Below, one piece after another: positions 5,704 through 17,922 of a stretch of DNA of 64,000 bases (position 1 is the first letter of the stretch; each line of letters begins with the position of its first letter). The position numbers were made by a program, and so were the translations under genes. Source of the stretch: Capsulimonadales bacterium (GTDB taxonomy: Bacteria; Armatimonadota; Armatimonadia; Armatimonadales; Armatimonadaceae); assembly GCA_033762295.1 (NCBI GenBank), contig JANRLW010000075.1, positions 1-64,000 of the forward strand, read 5' to 3'. A model generated the notes under the pieces. It did no database searches. It worked only from the letters and a program-made list of their open reading frames with translations, and was not told the origin of the DNA.

Positions 5704-6849
5704 TCAGGGGGTGTTGGCGATGATGAGGATATCGACCGAGCGCAGTTCGCGGGTGATCCGGTTGATGATCGAACCCTTTACGAACTCCTGCCACCGCGAA
5801 CGGTCCGAATGACCGAGGACGATCTGTGTGATGCCGTTCTCCCGCGCATAGCGGATCAACTCCGTCGCGATATCGCCGTGCAGGGTGGTCACCGGGATTT
5901 TCAGCCGATCCGCCAGGGCGAAGTCGTTCCGGAGAATCTCCTGCTCCCGTGCGTTGGGCGGACGACTCTCCACATAAACAGCGACGATGCTGCCTTTCAA
6001 ACGCTGTGCGATCCGCCATCCCCGGCGGAGCAGGCGCAGGGAGGATTGGGTCGGGGACAGGCAGACCATGATCCGGTCGTGCGTGGCGACGGGTCCCTCC
6101 AGATGGTGTTCCCGCCGATACGCGGAGATGTCCTGATCGACCTCGTTCGCGATCTCCCGCAGGGCGATCTCGCGCAGCGCGGTCAGATTCCCCTCGCGAA
6201 ACCAGTTGGACCTGGCCTGCTCGATCTTCTCCGGGCGGTAGATATCGCCCCGTTCCAGACGGTGGAGCAGCGCGCGCGGCGTGATATCCACCATCACGTA
6301 CTCATCGGCGTCCCGCAGCACATGATCCGGCACCGTCTCCCGCACCCTTACCCCGGTCACCTCGTACACCGCGTCGTTCAGACTCTCCAGGTGCTGAACG
6401 TTCAGCGTCGAAAGGACGTTGATGCCCGCGTCGAGAATCACCAGGACATCCTGCCAGCGTTTTTCCCGCTCGGACCCCGGAACGTTGGTATGGGCCAGTT
6501 CGTCGACCAGGACGGTGTGTGGCTGACGCCGCAGAATGGCGTCGGTGTCCATCTCCTCCATCGTCGTCCCCCGGTACTCGACCCGTTTCCGGGGAATCAC
6601 CGGCAGGTCGCCGAGCTGTTCCTCGGTGCCTTTGCGCCCATGCGTTTCAACATAACCGATGACGACGTCCTGGCCCCGCTGGCGACGACGGTTCGCCTCC
6701 GTCAGCATTTCGAACGTCTTGCCGACGCCTGCCGCAAACCCGAGGAAGATTTTGTGCCTGCCCCGCCCCGTACGGCGTTCCTCCTCGCGGCAGAGAGCGA
6801 GTGCCTCCTCCGGCGAGATGCGTTTTTCCTCGAAAGCGGGTCCGGTCAT
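5704..6849 (-). CDS. kdpD: Stand-alone KdpD N-terminal sensor domain + USP domain (no TM or kinase part)
   Basis: GRHKIFLGFAAGVGKTFEML, VETHGR, LVDELAHTN, KRWQDV, NVQHLESLND, then a USP domain (RIMVCLS...IVLGHS). Confidence 0.88.
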   Translation of the reverse strand: MTGPAFEEKRISPEEALALCREEERRTGRGRHKIFLGFAAGVGKTFEMLTEANRRRQRGQDVVIGYVETHGRKGTEEQLGDLPVIPRKRVEYRGTTMEEMDTDAILRRQPHTVLVDELAHTNVPGSEREKRWQDVLVILDAGINVLSTLNVQHLESLNDAVYEVTGVRVRETVPDHVLRDADEYVMVDITPRALLHRLERGDIYRPEKIEQARSNWFREGNLTALREIALREIANEVDQDISAYRREHHLEGPVATHDRIMVCLSPTQSSLRLLRRGWRIAQRLKGSIVAVYVESRPPNAREQEILRNDFALADRLKIPVTTLHGDIATELIRYARENGITQIVLGHSDRSRWQEFVKGSIINRITRELRSVDILIIANTP

Positions 6850-6866
6850 GGCGTCTCGAATCCCGA

Positions 6867-7631
6867 TTACCGGTTCCCGCCGACGGCGTTCGGCGCGGAA
6901 AGCACGGCATCGATCCAGTGTTTCTGTCCGCTGGTCAGGTCGTTGACCGTCAGAACGCCCGCGGGCGGAAGCTCGGCGTGCTGCCAGAGCCAGTTCGCCA
7001 GGGTTTCCGCGCACAACGCCTGCCAGAAATCGTCCCCATCCGGCATCTCCTCCCGATCCGCGTACGCCTTTACCAGCTCGATCATGTACGGTGGCAGGGA
7101 AACCAGACAGGGTAAACCGTCCCCGGTCGCCGTAAGAACGAGAAAGGAGACATCCATCTGCCCCTCTTTTGTTTTCCGGGGCGCGGAAATCGCCCGCAGG
7201 CGAAAACCGTTGACCGTGGTCACATCGAACGAGTACGGGGAGAAGAACCTGCTGCCGGCCCGTTCGTCCCGTCCGGTCAGGGCGGTCGTTACCGCGCCGC
7301 GCAGCGTTTCGACCGTGAACGGCTTGCGCAGGAAATCGACCGCGCCGGCCGCCATCGCTTCCGTTGCCAGGTCGATGGTGCCGAACGCGGTGATCATCAT
7401 CACCCGTGCGTCCGGGCGTCGCTGACGCATGGTCCGCAGTACCTCCAATCCTTCCATGCCCGGCATCCGCTGGTCCAGCAGGGTCAGTTCCCAGTCCGCG
7501 CCGGAACCGAACCGTTCCAGCCCCTCAAAGCCGTCGGCTGCCGTTTCGACCGCATGGCCGACCGCCGTCAGAGCAAGCTTCAGCATCGTTCGAATGTTGC
7601 TCTCGTCATCGATTACCAGAATGCGTGCCAT
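6867..7631 (-). CDS. Response regulator: receiver domain + unrecognised C-terminal domain
   Basis: ILVIDDE...LLDQRMPGMEG...MITAFG...DFLRKPF; the C-terminal ~120 aa has no obvious wHTH or AAA motif. Confidence 0.85.
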   Translation of the reverse strand: MARILVIDDESNIRTMLKLALTAVGHAVETAADGFEGLERFGSGADWELTLLDQRMPGMEGLEVLRTMRQRRPDARVMMITAFGTIDLATEAMAAGAVDFLRKPFTVETLRGAVTTALTGRDERAGSRFFSPYSFDVTTVNGFRLRAISAPRKTKEGQMDVSFLVLTATGDGLPCLVSLPPYMIELVKAYADREEMPDGDDFWQALCAETLANWLWQHAELPPAGVLTVNDLTSGQKHWIDAVLSAPNAVGGNR

Positions 7632-7655
7632 ACGCCCACCTTTCCTCACAAGTCC

Positions 7656-9518
7656 TTACAAGTCCTTACGAGAAGTCCCTTCGACTCGGATATCACGGAA
7701 TGTCGCCGGCAGCGAGAAGCGGAACACGCTGCCGTTCCCCGGTTCGCTCTGCGCCCGTATCTCACCACCATGCGCCCGAACGATCGTCTGTGCGATCGAC
7801 AGGCCGAGGCCCGCCCCGCCGCGCGTCGCTCCGGGCACCTGCACGAAACGGTCGAAAATCCGTTCCAGGTAGGCCGGAGGAATGCCCGAACCGGTATCGG
7901 CGACCTGAAAGACGACCCGATCGCCCTCGGTGTTCGCGCTGAGCGTGACCCGACCGGCGGCGGGGGTGTGGCGGATCGCGTTCGATGCCAGGTTGATCAG
8001 GACACGGACCATCTGACTGCGGTCCGCCCGAACCGGCGGGAGCGTTTCGTCCGTCGTCGCCTCCAGTATCACGTTCCGGGTTCGCGCCTCCGCTTCCACG
8101 CTACGTCGAGCGGCCGTCAGAAGTTCGTTCGGGGCGACGACCTCGAAGCGGGGCGGGGTTGCGCCCGATTCCAGCCGCGTCAGATCGAGCAGTTCATGCA
8201 TCATCCGTTCCAACCGAAGCAGGTCCTCGCGCAGCACGCTCACAATCTCTCGCTGCGCCGGCAGCAGTGCGCCGGCCGCCCCTTCCGCCAGCAGATCGAC
8301 ACCGAGAAGGAGCGAGGTGACGGGGGTTCGCAGTTCATGGGAGGCAACCCCGATGAACTCGGTCTTCAGGCGGCCCACCTCCTGCTGATAGGTGACATCC
8401 TCCAGAACGGCGACCGCCCCGAGCGGCATGGCGTCCTCGTCGCGAATCGGCGTCGCCCGCAATCGGTAGGCGCGACCGGCCAGGGACACCAGCCCGGCGT
8501 CCCCCTCCTCAGCCGAAACCTGCGCCTCCCGGGCCGCGCGCCGGATCGCCTCCGCCAGACGATTCTCCTGAACGACCGACTGCACGAACTGCCCGCTCGC
8601 CCGAACCCCCGGCCCGAACAGGCCCTCCGCCGCGCGGTTCAGACGGACGACGCGTCCTTCCTGGTCCGTGACGATGACCGGGTCATACAGATCGGTCAAC
8701 GCGGCGTCGCTGAGCCGCTCGGCGCGATGCAGTCGCTCCTCCTCCCGACGCCGGGCCTCCTGAAGGCGTTCCGCCATGCCGTTGAAGGTCGTCGCCAGAA
8801 GGCCGATCTCGTCGTCGCGGCGCGCTTCGATCCGCTGGTTGAAATGGCCCGAACCGATCTCCTCCGCCTGCCGGGTCAGCGAAATCAGGGGCGTCATCAG
8901 CGTCGCGATGTTCCGTCGCGCCCATCCGAGTCCGAGGACGACGGCCAGAGCGGTAATCAGCACGCTGGCAAGGGCCGCGACCCGCGCCTCCTCTCTCGCC
9001 CGCCGGTCCGCACGGACAATCGCGGCCTGATTCAGGTCGAGGACATCCTGAACACGGCGTTTCACCCGGGAGAACTGCGGCTGCAGAACGGAGAAGTAGA
9101 AAGACCGGGTCCGACCCGACTCGTCCGGAGCCGTCGAAAAGAGCAGACCTTCGACCTGCCGCCGATAGCGGGCGAATTCGCGGGTCAGGTCGTCGGAAAT
9201 CTCCTGCTCGCCCACCTCCGTGATATTGTCCGCTTCGATCCGGGCGGCGTTCAGAAACAGGGGGAGGTTCTCCCGATACTGTCGTCGCGCCCATTCCCGC
9301 TGTCCGGTCACGAAGAAGGTCGAGGCGCTGTCGATCCGCTCCAGAGCTTCTTTCATGTTCTGCGCGGCGATCACGCTCTTGTAGTTATCTTCCAGAATAC
9401 GGTTGACCGACTGGCCGAGACGGAAAAAACCGGCGACCGCGATCAGGCAGACGCCGAGAAGCAGTCCCACCAGTAAAAGGTGGGACTGGAGCAGTTGCGA
9501 CCGCAGGCTCTTTCGCAT
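7656..9518 (-). CDS. Membrane sensor histidine kinase (periplasmic helical domain-HAMP-PAS-HisKA-HATPase)
   Basis: Two TM segments, HAMP (DEIGLLATTFNGM), PAS, H-box ASHELRTP, N-box NLASNAIRHT, G-boxes DTGSGI and GAGLGLSI. Confidence 0.93.
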   Translation of the reverse strand: MRKSLRSQLLQSHLLLVGLLLGVCLIAVAGFFRLGQSVNRILEDNYKSVIAAQNMKEALERIDSASTFFVTGQREWARRQYRENLPLFLNAARIEADNITEVGEQEISDDLTREFARYRRQVEGLLFSTAPDESGRTRSFYFSVLQPQFSRVKRRVQDVLDLNQAAIVRADRRAREEARVAALASVLITALAVVLGLGWARRNIATLMTPLISLTRQAEEIGSGHFNQRIEARRDDEIGLLATTFNGMAERLQEARRREEERLHRAERLSDAALTDLYDPVIVTDQEGRVVRLNRAAEGLFGPGVRASGQFVQSVVQENRLAEAIRRAAREAQVSAEEGDAGLVSLAGRAYRLRATPIRDEDAMPLGAVAVLEDVTYQQEVGRLKTEFIGVASHELRTPVTSLLLGVDLLAEGAAGALLPAQREIVSVLREDLLRLERMMHELLDLTRLESGATPPRFEVVAPNELLTAARRSVEAEARTRNVILEATTDETLPPVRADRSQMVRVLINLASNAIRHTPAAGRVTLSANTEGDRVVFQVADTGSGIPPAYLERIFDRFVQVPGATRGGAGLGLSIAQTIVRAHGGEIRAQSEPGNGSVFRFSLPATFRDIRVEGTSRKDL

Positions 9519-15389: not shown

Positions 15390-15473
15390 TTAAAACCTCT
15401 CCGGGCGCAACAGTGCGTAAAGAAGATAGACCAGCAAAAGAACCGCGATGCCGCCGATGATCGAATATTCCAT
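15390..15473 (-). CDS. kdpF: K+-transporting ATPase subunit F (27 aa)
   Basis: Hand-translated MEYSIIGGIAVLLLVYLLYALLRPERF; the YLxYALLRPExF ending is typical of KdpF; lies directly upstream of kdpA. Confidence 0.9.
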   Translation of the reverse strand: MEYSIIGGIAVLLLVYLLYALLRPERF

Positions 15474-15483
15474 TTCTCAAGCC

Positions 15484-15567
15484 TCACGAGGCATCGCAGG
15501 CGCGCACATAGCCCGCCGCGATACCGAAAAACAGAAGCGCCGTCAAAATCTGGATCAGGTCGCCCAT
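15484..15567 (-). CDS. Small hydrophobic kdp-associated peptide (27 aa)
   Basis: MGDLIQILTALLFFGIAAGYVRACDAS; SD AAAGGA; resembles the small peptides often found upstream of kdpF. Confidence 0.7.
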   Translation of the reverse strand: MGDLIQILTALLFFGIAAGYVRACDAS

Positions 15568-15599
15568 GGGTCGTTCCTTTCTTCCGTGGCGTTTCCGGC

Positions 15600-15740
15600 T
15601 CAGGACCGGCCCCGCCCGACGATTTTTGCCCGGTAGGTCCGCCGACGCAGGTGTTCCCGGGGCGAGCGGCATCCGCACAGCCCTTCGAAGAGCAGCCAGA
15701 GGACCACGCCGATTCCCACCGACACGAAAAACAGAGACAT
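15600..15740 (-). CDS. Small membrane peptide (46 aa)
   Basis: Hand-translated MSLFFVSVGIGVVLWLLFEGLCGCRSPREHLRRRTYRAKIVGRGRS; SD GAGGAGG overlaps the previous stop. Confidence 0.5.
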   Translation of the reverse strand: MSLFFVSVGIGVVLWLLFEGLCGCRSPREHLRRRTYRAKIVGRGRS

Positions 15741-15747
15741 TGCCTCC

Positions 15748-15843
15748 TCACTTCCTCCGCGATCCGGGTTCCTTCGACAGGAACCAGACGGAACCGGTCA
15801 ATCCCGCGCACAGCGGCAGCCACACGACCAGCACTTCCCACAT
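15748..15843 (-). CDS. Small membrane peptide (31 aa)
   Basis: MWEVLVVWLPLCAGLTGSVWFLSKEPGSRRK; SD AGGAGG 8 nt upstream. Confidence 0.55.
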   Translation of the reverse strand: MWEVLVVWLPLCAGLTGSVWFLSKEPGSRRK

Positions 15844-15881: not shown

Positions 15882-15953
15882 AAAAAAGGCCGAAGAGGTA
15901 TCCGAGCGGCGCGACGACATGGCGTCGTTTCCGTTCGGACAACCCCTTCGGCC
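15882..15953 (-). terminator. Terminator/attenuator hairpin in the 5' leader of the peptide-kdp operon
   Basis: Minus strand GGCCGAAGGGG...long inner stem...CCTCTTCGGCC followed by TTTTTT, ~40 nt before the first ATG. Confidence 0.65.
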
Positions 15954-16069
15954 TCCCGAAAGACCGACTGTCCGGGACAGTCCTTCTTTCCGGCAACCGT
16001 TCGGTTGCGTCGACTATGCGATTCTTTTACGCGACTCTTCGCGCTTTTCCCGAGCGATTACCGGATCGG

Positions 16070-16486
16070 TTATCCGGATCGTCGCGGGCCGTGATAGGTC
16101 AGTCTGTCGACATCCTGCCGCAGCAGCCGCTTTTCGACATCGACCTCCAGGATGTACATTTCGACCTGCTCGGCGGCCGTCACATCCAGATCGTAGTAGC
16201 TCCGCACGACCGGAGCGGCGACGATGCGGGCGACCAGCGCCTCCGCCTCATCGCGATGAATGGACCGAAGTTCCCGCCGTGCGGACTTGATCAGGCGTCG
16301 CCCCTCCTCCGAGGCGGCCAGATGCGCCTCGGTCGGAGTGAAGATCCCTCCGCTGCGGACGATCAGGAGATCGCCGACCAGGTGCGCTCGAACATCGGAA
16401 GCGCCGCGCCCGTGCTGTTCTCGTTGAAAGCGCACGATCGCATTCGCCACCTCGGCTTCGATACTGCCTTTGGTCGTCCGCTCCAT
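16070..16486 (-). CDS. DUF2294 (MpsC-like) protein
   Basis: MERTTKGSIEAEVANAIVRFQREQHGRGASDVRAHLVGDLLIVRSGGIFTPTE...EGRRLIKSARREL; SD GGAGG. Confidence 0.85.
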   Translation of the reverse strand: MERTTKGSIEAEVANAIVRFQREQHGRGASDVRAHLVGDLLIVRSGGIFTPTEAHLAASEEGRRLIKSARRELRSIHRDEAEALVARIVAAPVVRSYYDLDVTAAEQVEMYILEVDVEKRLLRQDVDRLTYHGPRRSG

Positions 16487-16528
16487 CTCCCCTCCGCGAA
16501 TCGGTCGTGCTTTCCTCGGTGTCCCCTC

Positions 16529-16587
16529 AAAAACACGAAAAGCCAGCATCTCCTCACGGAACGCCTGAAGCGTCGGGAAATGCCGGC
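16529..16587 (-). terminator. Terminator/attenuator hairpin in the 5' leader of the DUF2294 gene
   Basis: Minus strand GCCGGCATTTCC...GGAGATGCTGGC followed by TTTTCGTGTTTTT; no gene on this strand directly upstream. Confidence 0.6.
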
Positions 16588-16764
16588 CTACGGAGGGCAC
16601 CAAACCACGCCGCGAATCGGGCGAGTTCCTTGCTTCCGTCCACCAGAAACGAAAATATGTTACCTCCGCGTTTCGATCCGCGCAACCCCGATTCGCAAAT
16701 CGTTGGCGGAGAATCCGGAGCGTTTCGCAATTCGCGTGAAATGCCCATATAGTAAGTTCAGGAA

Positions 16765-17922
16765 ATGAAGCGTTTCGAACCCCCGCTGCTCTTTGCCCTC
16801 TTTCTGGACCTGGTCGGTTTCGGGATCATGTTCCCGGATATCCAGTTGCGGGCGCAGGAGTACGGCGCGCCGGGCTGGCTGATCGGTCTGACACTGGCCA
16901 GTTACTACCTGGTGCAGATGGCCGCCTCGCCCTTCTGGGGGCGACTGAGCGATCGGATCGGACGAAAGCCCGTTCTGCTCGTCTGCGGGGGGCTGTCCGC
17001 GCTGTCGATGGCGATCTACGCCTTCTCGGCGAATATCGGGTGGATCGTCGTCAGCCGTATTCTGGCCGGTCTGGGCGGGGCGAATGTCGCCGTGGCGCAG
17101 GCGTATATCGCGGACGCCGCCGATCCGGAGCAACGTGCGGGGGCGCTCGGACGGATGAGCGCGGCGATCAGCGCGGGCCTGGTGCTCGGGCCGTCCCTCG
17201 GCGGGTTCCTGGCACAGGCGGGCGGAAACTTTCTCCTGGGCATCGTCGCCGCCCTCGCCTCCGGGATCGGGGTCCTCTGGATAATGATCGCCGTGCCGTC
17301 GCTGCCCCCCCGCCGCGCCGGGGAGACGCCTTCCGGGGACAGGATACCGGCGATCGCCCTGTTCCGGGGAAACCCGCCCCTGTTCCGTCTGTTCGCCGTT
17401 GCCGTGACCGGATGGTTTGCGCTCGCCTGTCTGGAGGGGACATTCGGACGGCTGATTCAGCACAATCTCGGCTACGGTCGTTTGGAGTTCGGTATTCTGC
17501 TATCGCTGGAGGCAGGGGTGGCGGTGATTCAGGGAGCGATCTACCCGTTCCTGGCGAAGCGGTTGTGCGAGGAGACGCTTCTGCGGATCGCGTACGTTCT
17601 CCAGACGATCGGCCTTGGCCTGATGCCCTTCGCGCCCGACTTTCCTTCACTGGTCGTCCTGAGTATCGCCTTCGGGTTCGGAGTCGGCATCGCCAATCCG
17701 ACCATCAACAGTCGGGCGAGCCACCTGGTCTCCCCGGAACGGCAGGGAAGCGTCTTCGGCCTGCTGCAATCGTCGCGGGCGTTCGGTTTTCTGGTCGGCC
17801 CGATGATTGGCGGAACGCTCTTCGACTGGAACTCCGCCGCCCCGTACCTCCTGGGCGGCGCGACCATGCTCCTTGCCGCCTTCGCCGTTCGTAGCTCCTC
17901 ACCTCCCGCCAAACGGATATAA
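16765..17922 (+). CDS. MFS transporter (DHA1/TetA-like)
   Basis: Multiple TM segments; motif A WGRLSDRIGRKPVL; SRILAGLGG; AQAYIAD; GLVLGPSLGG. Confidence 0.9.
   Translation: MKRFEPPLLFALFLDLVGFGIMFPDIQLRAQEYGAPGWLIGLTLASYYLVQMAASPFWGRLSDRIGRKPVLLVCGGLSALSMAIYAFSANIGWIVVSRILAGLGGANVAVAQAYIADAADPEQRAGALGRMSAAISAGLVLGPSLGGFLAQAGGNFLLGIVAALASGIGVLWIMIAVPSLPPRRAGETPSGDRIPAIALFRGNPPLFRLFAVAVTGWFALACLEGTFGRLIQHNLGYGRLEFGILLSLEAGVAVIQGAIYPFLAKRLCEETLLRIAYVLQTIGLGLMPFAPDFPSLVVLSIAFGFGVGIANPTINSRASHLVSPERQGSVFGLLQSSRAFGFLVGPMIGGTLFDWNSAAPYLLGGATMLLAAFAVRSSSPPAKRI

Follow-up and report, generated by a model that had tools for sequence, protein, structure and literature searches.

A conserved terminator-overlapping RNA element in front of DUF2294 and kdp genes of Armatimonadota: a candidate attenuation system for potassium uptake

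The 64,000-nucleotide stretch of DNA considered here (the window; positions 1 to 64,000 of the forward strand of contig JANRLW010000075.1, GenBank assembly GCA_033762295.1) comes from a Capsulimonadales bacterium of the phylum Armatimonadota and carries on its minus strand a gene for a DUF2294/MpsC-family protein, followed by a kdp potassium-uptake operon. The leaders in front of the DUF2294 gene and of the kdp operon are copies of one conserved, uncatalogued RNA family, all convincing copies of which are confined to Armatimonadota, and comparative sequence analysis gives good support to the RNA family and to its attenuator geometry. A first inspection of the letters alone, below called the sequence-only reading, had proposed a new cis-regulatory attenuation system in front of these genes. 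That proposal is borne out, as the element is conserved, covarying, linked to terminators and without a match in Rfam, and the DUF2294 protein itself may be the factor that acts on it.

Two covariance models were used for the detection of copies, R1, built from 14 aligned copies, and R2, built from 78 copies of related loci and containing no window sequence, although R2 is partly circular since its copies had been gathered with R1. With filters off, R2 gave exactly two matches in the 64-kb window, at 47.7 bits (E 7e-10) and 40.8 bits (E 3.7e-8), the next candidate having an E value of 0.71; the shared architecture that had been claimed for the two leaders is thereby recovered by a model from which both were absent. 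The first match is the class 1 copy (16581..16650, minus strand, as for all window features below unless stated otherwise; R1 53.8 bits) in leader 1 (16650-16529), upstream of the DUF2294 gene. The second is the class 2 copy (15946..16004; R1 46 bits) in leader 2 (16004-15882), between DUF2294 and the kdp operon. R1 found no copies but these two in the genome from which the window comes, with the best 150 of 3121 candidates scored. No Rfam 15 family matched the 64-kb window at its gathering score, and in the 1.7 kb around the leaders a search at E <= 10 returned only unrelated sub-threshold families (E 0.49-9.5), the c-di-AMP (cyclic di-AMP) riboswitch family RF00379 not being among them; the Rfam scan proposed in the sequence-only reading thus yields no matching family for the window or the leader region.

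The strings and hairpins from which the sequence-only reading started are in place. In leader 1, CGGAAGCAAGGA stands at 16638-16627, and AGGCCG at 16589 opens a long hairpin that forms intrinsic terminator 1 (AGGCCGGCAUUUCC...GGAGAUGCUGGCUUUUCGUGUUUUU; 16529..16589), the 5' base of which is the 3' strand of helix P1 of the motif and the U tract of which runs to 16529, leaving 43 nt to the DUF2294 ATG (16486). In leader 2, CGGAAAGAAGGA at 15992-15981 is followed by the hairpin GACTGTC-CCG-GACAGTC, and AGGCC at 15954 opens the long hairpin of intrinsic terminator 2 (GGGAGGCCGAAGGGG...CCUCUUCGGCCUUUUUU; 15882..15957), which overlaps the 3' strand of P1 and closes with U6 (15887-15882) 38 nt ahead of the ATG at 15843. 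What had been overlooked is the 5' half of the element, a GGUKG box that pairs with AGGCC. Predicted folding energies are -59.3 kcal/mol for leader 1 (z -2.41) and -73.3 kcal/mol for leader 2 (z -5.11), and for each leader none of 200 shuffles was as good. A promoter-like site (TTGCGC, 17-nt spacer, TAACAT, read from the sequence) lies at 16657..16685, from which transcription of leader 1 would start a few nucleotides before the motif, and by eye sigma-70-like boxes, often with an extended -10 (TGGTAnAAT-like), precede most of the 33 copies of class 1 described below. A TTGAC inside the motif was considered as a -35 box and rejected, as no conserved -10 lies behind it.

Conservation in other DUF2294/kdp loci, which the sequence-only reading had made a condition, is clear. 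Both leaders are kept in all six of the nearest DUF2294 loci (all from metagenome-assembled genomes of Armatimonadota), in which the inner hairpin is variable. A wider protein search gave 56 related loci, with Armatimonadota-type records except for one labelled Xenobia and four labelled only 'bacterium', and in these R1 detected 78 copies, each on the same strand as DUF2294 and in one of two fixed positions: class 1 copies (n=33) lie 70-180 nt before the DUF2294 start and class 2 copies (n=45) just past its stop. By R1, class 1 is present in 32 of the 52 loci with an upstream flank, and class 2 in 45 of the 53 with a downstream flank. Record AP024152.1, of a cultured Armatimonadota/Abditibacteriota strain, combines DUF2294 with a class 2 copy and kdpA. 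Divergent class 2 copies were seen by eye in four further kdpA loci. When all species were scanned with a pattern, 105 stretches were listed, 80 of which were fetched; 16 look real, all in Armatimonadota, and the other 64 were discarded as chance matches in other phyla. Weak matches in five genomes for R1 and in two for R2 were judged false by eye, being coding-like and without a terminator. In one locus (L096:394-453 and 1347-1406; also in L038) the class 1 leader and its terminator are tandemly duplicated, the first copy being followed by what appears to be a truncated DUF2294 start.

The motif is a rod of about 60 nt, consisting of helices P1, P1a and P2, and its GGUUG/AGGCC box is invariant; from the 14 copies, RNAalifold predicted P1 and P2 unguided. 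In P1, NNGGUUG-AC (class 1) or NNGGUUG-CC (class 2) pairs with GU-A-GGCCNN or GG-A-GGCCNN. Among the 78 copies, the pairs G7-C116 and G8-C115 are kept in 77 and 75, and a U9.G114 wobble in 74 (besides two U-A and one C-G), a U10.G113 wobble in 71 and a G11.A112 mismatch in all 78 complete the box, flanked by pairs that vary in a compensatory manner (12-111: C-G 45, A-U 31; 6-117: U-A 23, C-G 23, U-G 16). Helix P1a reads GCA/UGC in class 1 copies and GCGA/UCGC in those of class 2, and some of its changes are compensatory; it is accompanied by a purine loop with a nearly invariant AAGG, while the P2 hairpin varies freely and shows compensatory changes at all seven scored pairs. Covariation in the related copies exceeds both shuffled and slid controls: 89.2% of cells pair versus 73.8% after shuffling and at most 53% in slid controls, and the covariation score is 0.381 versus 0.168 for shuffled alignments, with none of 500 shuffles reaching 0.381, these figures being read with the proviso that the alignment of the 78 copies (A7) was fitted to the model, which favours structure, and that the genomes are related to each other. 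A divergent copy in genome G109, AGUUACC/GGGGGCU, keeps its pairing through a G-C to A-U exchange and a change of G.A to A.G, and so does another divergent lineage (L107, L108, L128), in which GGCAG gives tandem A.G and G.A mismatches.

In 76 of the 78 copies a hairpin starts inside the 3' strand of P1 and is followed by a tail with at least 5 T in 9; with a threshold of -15 kcal/mol or stronger, these hairpins range from -15 to -57 kcal/mol with a median of -32.5, and in the two exceptions the hairpin is present and the tail weaker. Folded alone, the window rods reach -28.4 (copy 1) and -29.0 kcal/mol (copy 2). The terminator fold was calculated at -50.2 kcal/mol in leader 1 and -66.2 kcal/mol in leader 2, as compared to -43.5 and -58.5 kcal/mol when P1 is enforced. 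Since the terminator fold beats the P1-enforced fold in both window leaders, the default state is predicted to be OFF, and as closing of P1 deprives the terminator of its base next to the U tract, whatever stabilises P1 would turn the genes ON. Two features that define an attenuator are thus found, a terminator between promoter-like boxes and start codon and a covarying alternative helix, P1. The absence of a same-strand gene that terminator 1 could serve, as pointed out in the sequence-only reading, was confirmed: it ends no upstream gene because the sole upstream neighbour of leader 1 is a divergent transporter gene of the major facilitator superfamily (MFS; 16765-17922, plus strand).

The genes behind the motif make a K+-uptake regulon well supported, as judged from gene content. 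kdpA lies downstream in 42 of the 45 loci with a class 2 copy (among the 53 with a downstream flank). In L113 and L105 a HAMP-PAS kinase gene follows class 2, and in L119 the downstream open reading frame (ORF) opens with the same residues as that of L113. In G059 a motif copy with its own promoter-like site precedes a KimA homologue (PDB 6s3k, E 6.7e-136), which is followed by a kinase; an opposite-strand SIR2-like gene separates DUF2294 from this motif-kimA unit (L070:4316-5374), and upstream of DUF2294 there is seemingly only a class 1 remnant (CTGGTGGC-GTAGCC). G026 has one copy in front of kdpFA and another that lies behind the KdpD-N/Usp and DUF2294 genes and in front of an APC permease gene; a motif copy in this genome lies 8.6 kb from DUF2294. 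One Chthonomonadaceae genome has a third copy before a 4HB_MCP-type sensor gene, 3.5 Mb from DUF2294.

The element is closely linked to a particular type of DUF2294. In a sample of 151 genomes of the phylum, which overlaps in species with the 56-locus set so that the two are not independent, the DUF2294 family PF10057 is present in 34 genomes and KdpA in 49. A kdp-type DUF2294 occurs in 20 genomes, and all 20 have the motif (12 found by R1, 7 more with filters off and G109 by eye; R2 finds 19 of the 20). On the other hand, with filters off 25 kdpA upstream regions without an adjacent DUF2294 gave no copy, and Rfam gave no match in 20 other kdpA upstream regions. Nine genomes have only another DUF2294 subfamily, which adjoins genes for 2-oxoacid:ferredoxin oxidoreductase, glyceraldehyde-3-phosphate dehydrogenase or phosphoenolpyruvate carboxykinase (PEPCK), and no copy was found in seven such loci tested. 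Two of seven loci inspected for this subfamily have a leader and terminator of their own downstream, and five further loci show none: in L046:2952-3150 (minus strand) a promoter, a leader and a terminator lie between the DUF2294 gene and PEPCK, and in L034:2140-2470 (minus strand) the DUF2294 gene is followed by a GAGAGGCC box that opens a terminator before an ankyrin-repeat gene. Homology of the PEPCK leader to the motif was not detected by R1.

The candidate factor is encoded at 16070..16486 and has 138 amino acids, with PF10057 as its sole Pfam match (98 bits against a cut-off of 23, E 4.3e-28). The AlphaFold2 model (predicted local distance difference test, pLDDT, 92.9) consists of a helix, two strands, two helices, two strands and a helix. 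A homodimer is supported by modelling: the homodimer model scored 0.53, as compared to 0.00 for the best of three controls, and among proteins of solved structure this mark was attained by 20 of 30 pairs and by one of 23 single chains, a calibration that is only roughly valid here since a custom alignment was used; contacts agreed for 100% between runs and the partner pLDDT was at least 86. The predicted interface comprises the sheet and the invariant R95-S96-Y97-x-D99. A possible case of coevolution, R95C in G109 beside the swapped A.G pair mentioned above, was dropped, as R95 falls in the predicted dimer interface. A search of PDB by sequence gave two weak unrelated matches (E 0.01 and 0.96), the ESM Atlas gave no usable match for DUF2294, and NCBIfam none for DUF2294, for the porin of the operon described below or for the KimA-like protein. 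The DUF2294/MpsC family owes its name to a system for sodium/bicarbonate transport, where the part it plays is unclear. No published account of this RNA or of RNA binding by DUF2294 was found in the open literature, the accessible parts of the papers on Staphylococcus aureus MpsABC mention no RNA binding, and among the matches listed for kdp together with riboswitches there was c-di-AMP work only.

These data are best combined in a scheme in which DUF2294 is a new antiterminator protein that stabilises P1, a proposition for which we consider the scales to be about level. The nascent leader RNA would fold either as rod or as terminator, the 3' strand of P1 (GGAGGCC or GUAGGCC) being common to both. 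Unaided, the terminator wins by sequence and folding, and transcription is predicted to stop about 40 nt before the start codon. A DUF2294 dimer may bind the rod and hold P1 closed, by which the base of the terminator would be blocked and RNA polymerase could read through. The class 1 copy would then provide positive feedback of DUF2294 on its own gene, and the class 2 copy would switch on K+ uptake genes, which are kdpFABC here and, in other loci, a KimA homologue or the operon of the HAMP-PAS kinase. A shortage of K+ is presumably the signal; speculatively, it might be sensed by DUF2294 directly or relayed by the KdpD-N/Usp protein, the kinase and the regulator encoded at the locus, or by c-di-AMP. 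A broader version, in which DUF2294/MpsC is a large family of dimeric, signal-sensing, RNA-binding antiterminators with subfamily-specific leaders, and in which the Armatimonadota branch senses K+ status (directly, via c-di-AMP or via KdpD-N/Usp) and stands in for KdpE in the control of kdpFABC, of KimA and of their kinase, can be put forward tentatively, at slightly under even prospects.

Several observations weigh against assigning this role to DUF2294. The predicted fold is no known RNA-binding fold: Foldseek found nothing at E <= 0.001 (best VIA Z 6.4), and the weak structural look-alikes, Bet3/TRAPP, H-NOX and V4R-type sensors, are ligand-binding or scaffold folds. Since R95, S96, Y97 and D99 lie in the predicted interface, they may be conserved for reasons other than RNA contact. 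In one family, four genomes encode a divergent DUF2294 next to kdpA, and in G121, the sole locus of these inspected (L049:2230-3000), this protein (PF10057, E about 1e-5 to 1e-10) is encoded directly before kdpF-kdpA without leader or terminator, which implies that a link between protein and kdp can exist without the RNA. Conversely, among the 117 genomes without PF10057, R2 gave four matches, three of them false and one, in G127 (L243:807-1000), a variant class 1 copy with GGCAGAC for GGUUGAC and a good terminator, and neither DUF2294 nor kdpA was found in the G127 genome; this copy may be a relic or the result of an assembly gap. Co-occurrence of motif and DUF2294 could also reflect inheritance as one module, and the fitted alignment and the relatedness of the genomes mentioned above belong to the same side of the balance. 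Finally, the non-Watson-Crick box (U.G in 74 of 78, U.G in 71 of 78, G.A in 78 of 78) and the AAGG loop resemble a ligand or metal pocket.

The last point leads to the alternative that the rod is an ON riboswitch for a small molecule or ion that rises upon K+ shortage or salt stress, for example Na+, with DUF2294 merely being the first gene of the regulon. We regard this as unlikely, yet deserving serious attention: motif copies far from DUF2294 (3.5 Mb), the copy in G127 and the DUF2294-kdp arrangement without RNA in G121 (one locus of its family inspected) would all fit, as would the coherent regulon of kdpFABC, KimA homologue and kinase, which matches the c-di-AMP riboswitch regulon of Firmicutes as far as the accessible parts of the sources describe it. 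However, apart from G127 the motif was never found in a genome without a kdp-type DUF2294, and it is present in 20 of the 20 sample genomes that have one. The element is a simple rod without a multi-helix junction, its predicted ON geometry is incompatible with K+ or c-di-AMP as a simple ligand, and for K+ uptake no ligand that acts in the ON direction is known. Furthermore, as some DUF2294 genes of the other subfamily have different terminator leaders, a riboswitch would require several unrelated classes to be tied to one protein family.

The sequence-only reading had named as candidate antiterminator either DUF2294 or the odd response regulator encoded at 7649-6867, and co-occurrence favours the former over the latter. 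That the regulator is an ANTAR-like antiterminator, with DUF2294 in another Kdp-related role, seems improbable to us. Its C-terminal domain belongs to no Pfam family, its gene is on a contig with the motif or the kdp locus in 17 of 20 motif-bearing sample genomes (it is on the motif-kimA contig in G059, on a contig without a detected motif copy in G040, and was not detected in G139), and the motif directly precedes the partner kinase gene in three loci. Yet this regulator is also encoded in seven genomes that have no motif and no DUF2294, six of them of one family (f11) and the seventh G007, and with filters off R1 found no copy in four such regulator loci of 14-17 kb, three of which were scanned with Pfam (kinase in 3 of 3, regulator in 2 of 3, KimA-like permease in 1 of 3, KdpD-N/Usp in 1 of 3). 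The protein has no ANTAR domain: Pfam recognises REC only, the C-terminal 137 residues give no match even at E <= 10, and in the ESM Atlas this domain resembles unnamed 130-residue proteins only. Moreover, the motif is one rod, whereas ANTAR targets consist of two small hexaloop hairpins. The remaining alternative, ordinary constitutive terminators or insulators whose likeness arose by chance or local duplication, is very hard to maintain: the terminator scan flagged neither long terminator and only a short terminator-like hairpin inside terminator 1 (16558-16534), and the terminator after DUF2294 could just end that gene, but the elements are conserved across many families of the phylum at two fixed places with covariation, have functionally consistent targets, include one with no gene upstream to terminate, and are both found by R2 at E <= 3.7e-8.

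If DUF2294 is the antiterminator, the arrangement resembles that of the Escherichia coli bgl operon, in which the order is terminator-bglG-terminator-bglFB and where, as with SacY and LicT, the BglG antiterminator binds ribonucleic antiterminator (RAT) hairpins. In both systems a regulator gene is flanked by two leaders and the 3' side of a looped hairpin overlaps the 5' arm of the terminator, and a probable dimer (predicted for DUF2294) and positive feedback on its own gene (proposed here) would be further points of likeness. Unlike BglG and LicT, DUF2294 has no CAT or PRD domain (the Pfam scan gave PF10057 only), no RNA-binding protein of solved structure resembles its predicted fold, the RNAs of the two systems are unrelated in sequence, and ion transporter rather than sugar genes are controlled. 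The hut operon of Bacillus subtilis also starts with a small regulator gene, followed by a terminator and the target genes, its product HutP being a hexamer that recognises spaced UAG triplets. Gene order is alike, and so would be the binding of RNA by protein only when activated by a ligand, as proposed here; there is no family match, a predicted dimer takes the place of the hexamer, and a structured rod that of the spaced triplets. Among ion-sensing ON riboswitches with terminators, the Na+ DUF1646 motif and the Li+ nhaA-I motif are known. These too are small hairpin-type elements that overlap a terminator before cation transporter genes, unlike the present RNA in that the latter gives no Rfam match even at E <= 10 (1.7 kb) and is tied strictly to one protein family.

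With respect to potassium, the KdpD/KdpE system likewise controls kdpFABC, and the N-terminal KdpD/Usp sensor domain is encoded at the window locus; full-length KdpD and an OmpR-type KdpE are missing there, and control would be added at the level of termination. The suggestion that the new system replaces KdpE holds in part: no OmpR-type KdpE is encoded at the locus, but a HAMP-PAS kinase, the odd regulator and a free-standing KdpD-N/Usp are retained. In Bacillus thuringiensis, kdpFABC is controlled by the c-di-AMP riboswitch (ydaO/kimA leader, RF00379), according to the accessible text of the report (PMC6488665). As far as that text goes, the likeness extends to the kdpFABC/KimA-type regulon, the intrinsic terminator in the leader and occurrence where KdpE is missing, whereas the present element is a single rod of about 60 nt instead of about 130 nt and has ON instead of OFF geometry. 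RF00379 gave no matches in the window or the whole genome, with controls giving matches. Since a DAC cyclase is encoded in the genome, an action of c-di-AMP by way of a protein is still conceivable.

What emerges is an uncatalogued, phylum-wide regulatory RNA of potassium-uptake genes, whose structure and switch geometry are both clear. It also opens a concrete and cheap way of testing the function of the widespread DUF2294/MpsC domain. If DUF2294 is the effector, it would represent a new antiterminator family and a new way of Kdp/KimA control beside KdpDE and the c-di-AMP riboswitch; if the RNA itself senses a ligand, it would be a new riboswitch class for ion homeostasis.

Behind leader 2, the operon starts with four small ORFs (15390..15843) of 31 and 46 amino acids, a 27-residue peptide and a 27-residue KdpF-like peptide. 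The former 27-residue peptide is MGDLIQILTALLFFGIAAGYVRACDAS, and relatives of the FF..A..Y.R.C type are encoded just before kdpF in many related loci. Next are kdpA (15380-13581; Pfam KdpA, E 2e-242), kdpB (13568-11358; Pfam E1-E2 ATPase and Hydrolase) and kdpC (11338-10709; Pfam KdpC, E 4e-70). Pfam then identifies an OmpL-like outer-membrane porin of the BBP2 type (10662-9535), a HAMP-PAS-HisKA kinase (9518-7656) and a KdpD-N/Usp protein, a separate ORF of 436 amino acids within 7014-5704; the response regulator (7649-6867) has REC and a C-terminal domain of about 130 residues without a Pfam family. By the same scan neither an OmpR-type KdpE nor a full-length KdpD is present at the locus, the regulator lacking Trans_reg_C. 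KdpD thus looks split at 5704-9518, with the free-standing KdpD-N/Usp beside the kinase and the odd regulator. The trio of kinase, regulator and KdpD-N/Usp, whole or in part, also occurs in Armatimonadota genomes without kdp, where it adjoins a KimA-like permease. The Pfam match of KdpA is split at about residues 431-433 in 10 of the 49 KdpA genomes (nine with the motif, and G045; examples are G136:C36, G087:C31 and G075:C70), which suggests a lineage-specific insertion. The porin gene sits in the kdp operon between kdpC and the kinase gene, and its product may be an outer-membrane entry route for K+.

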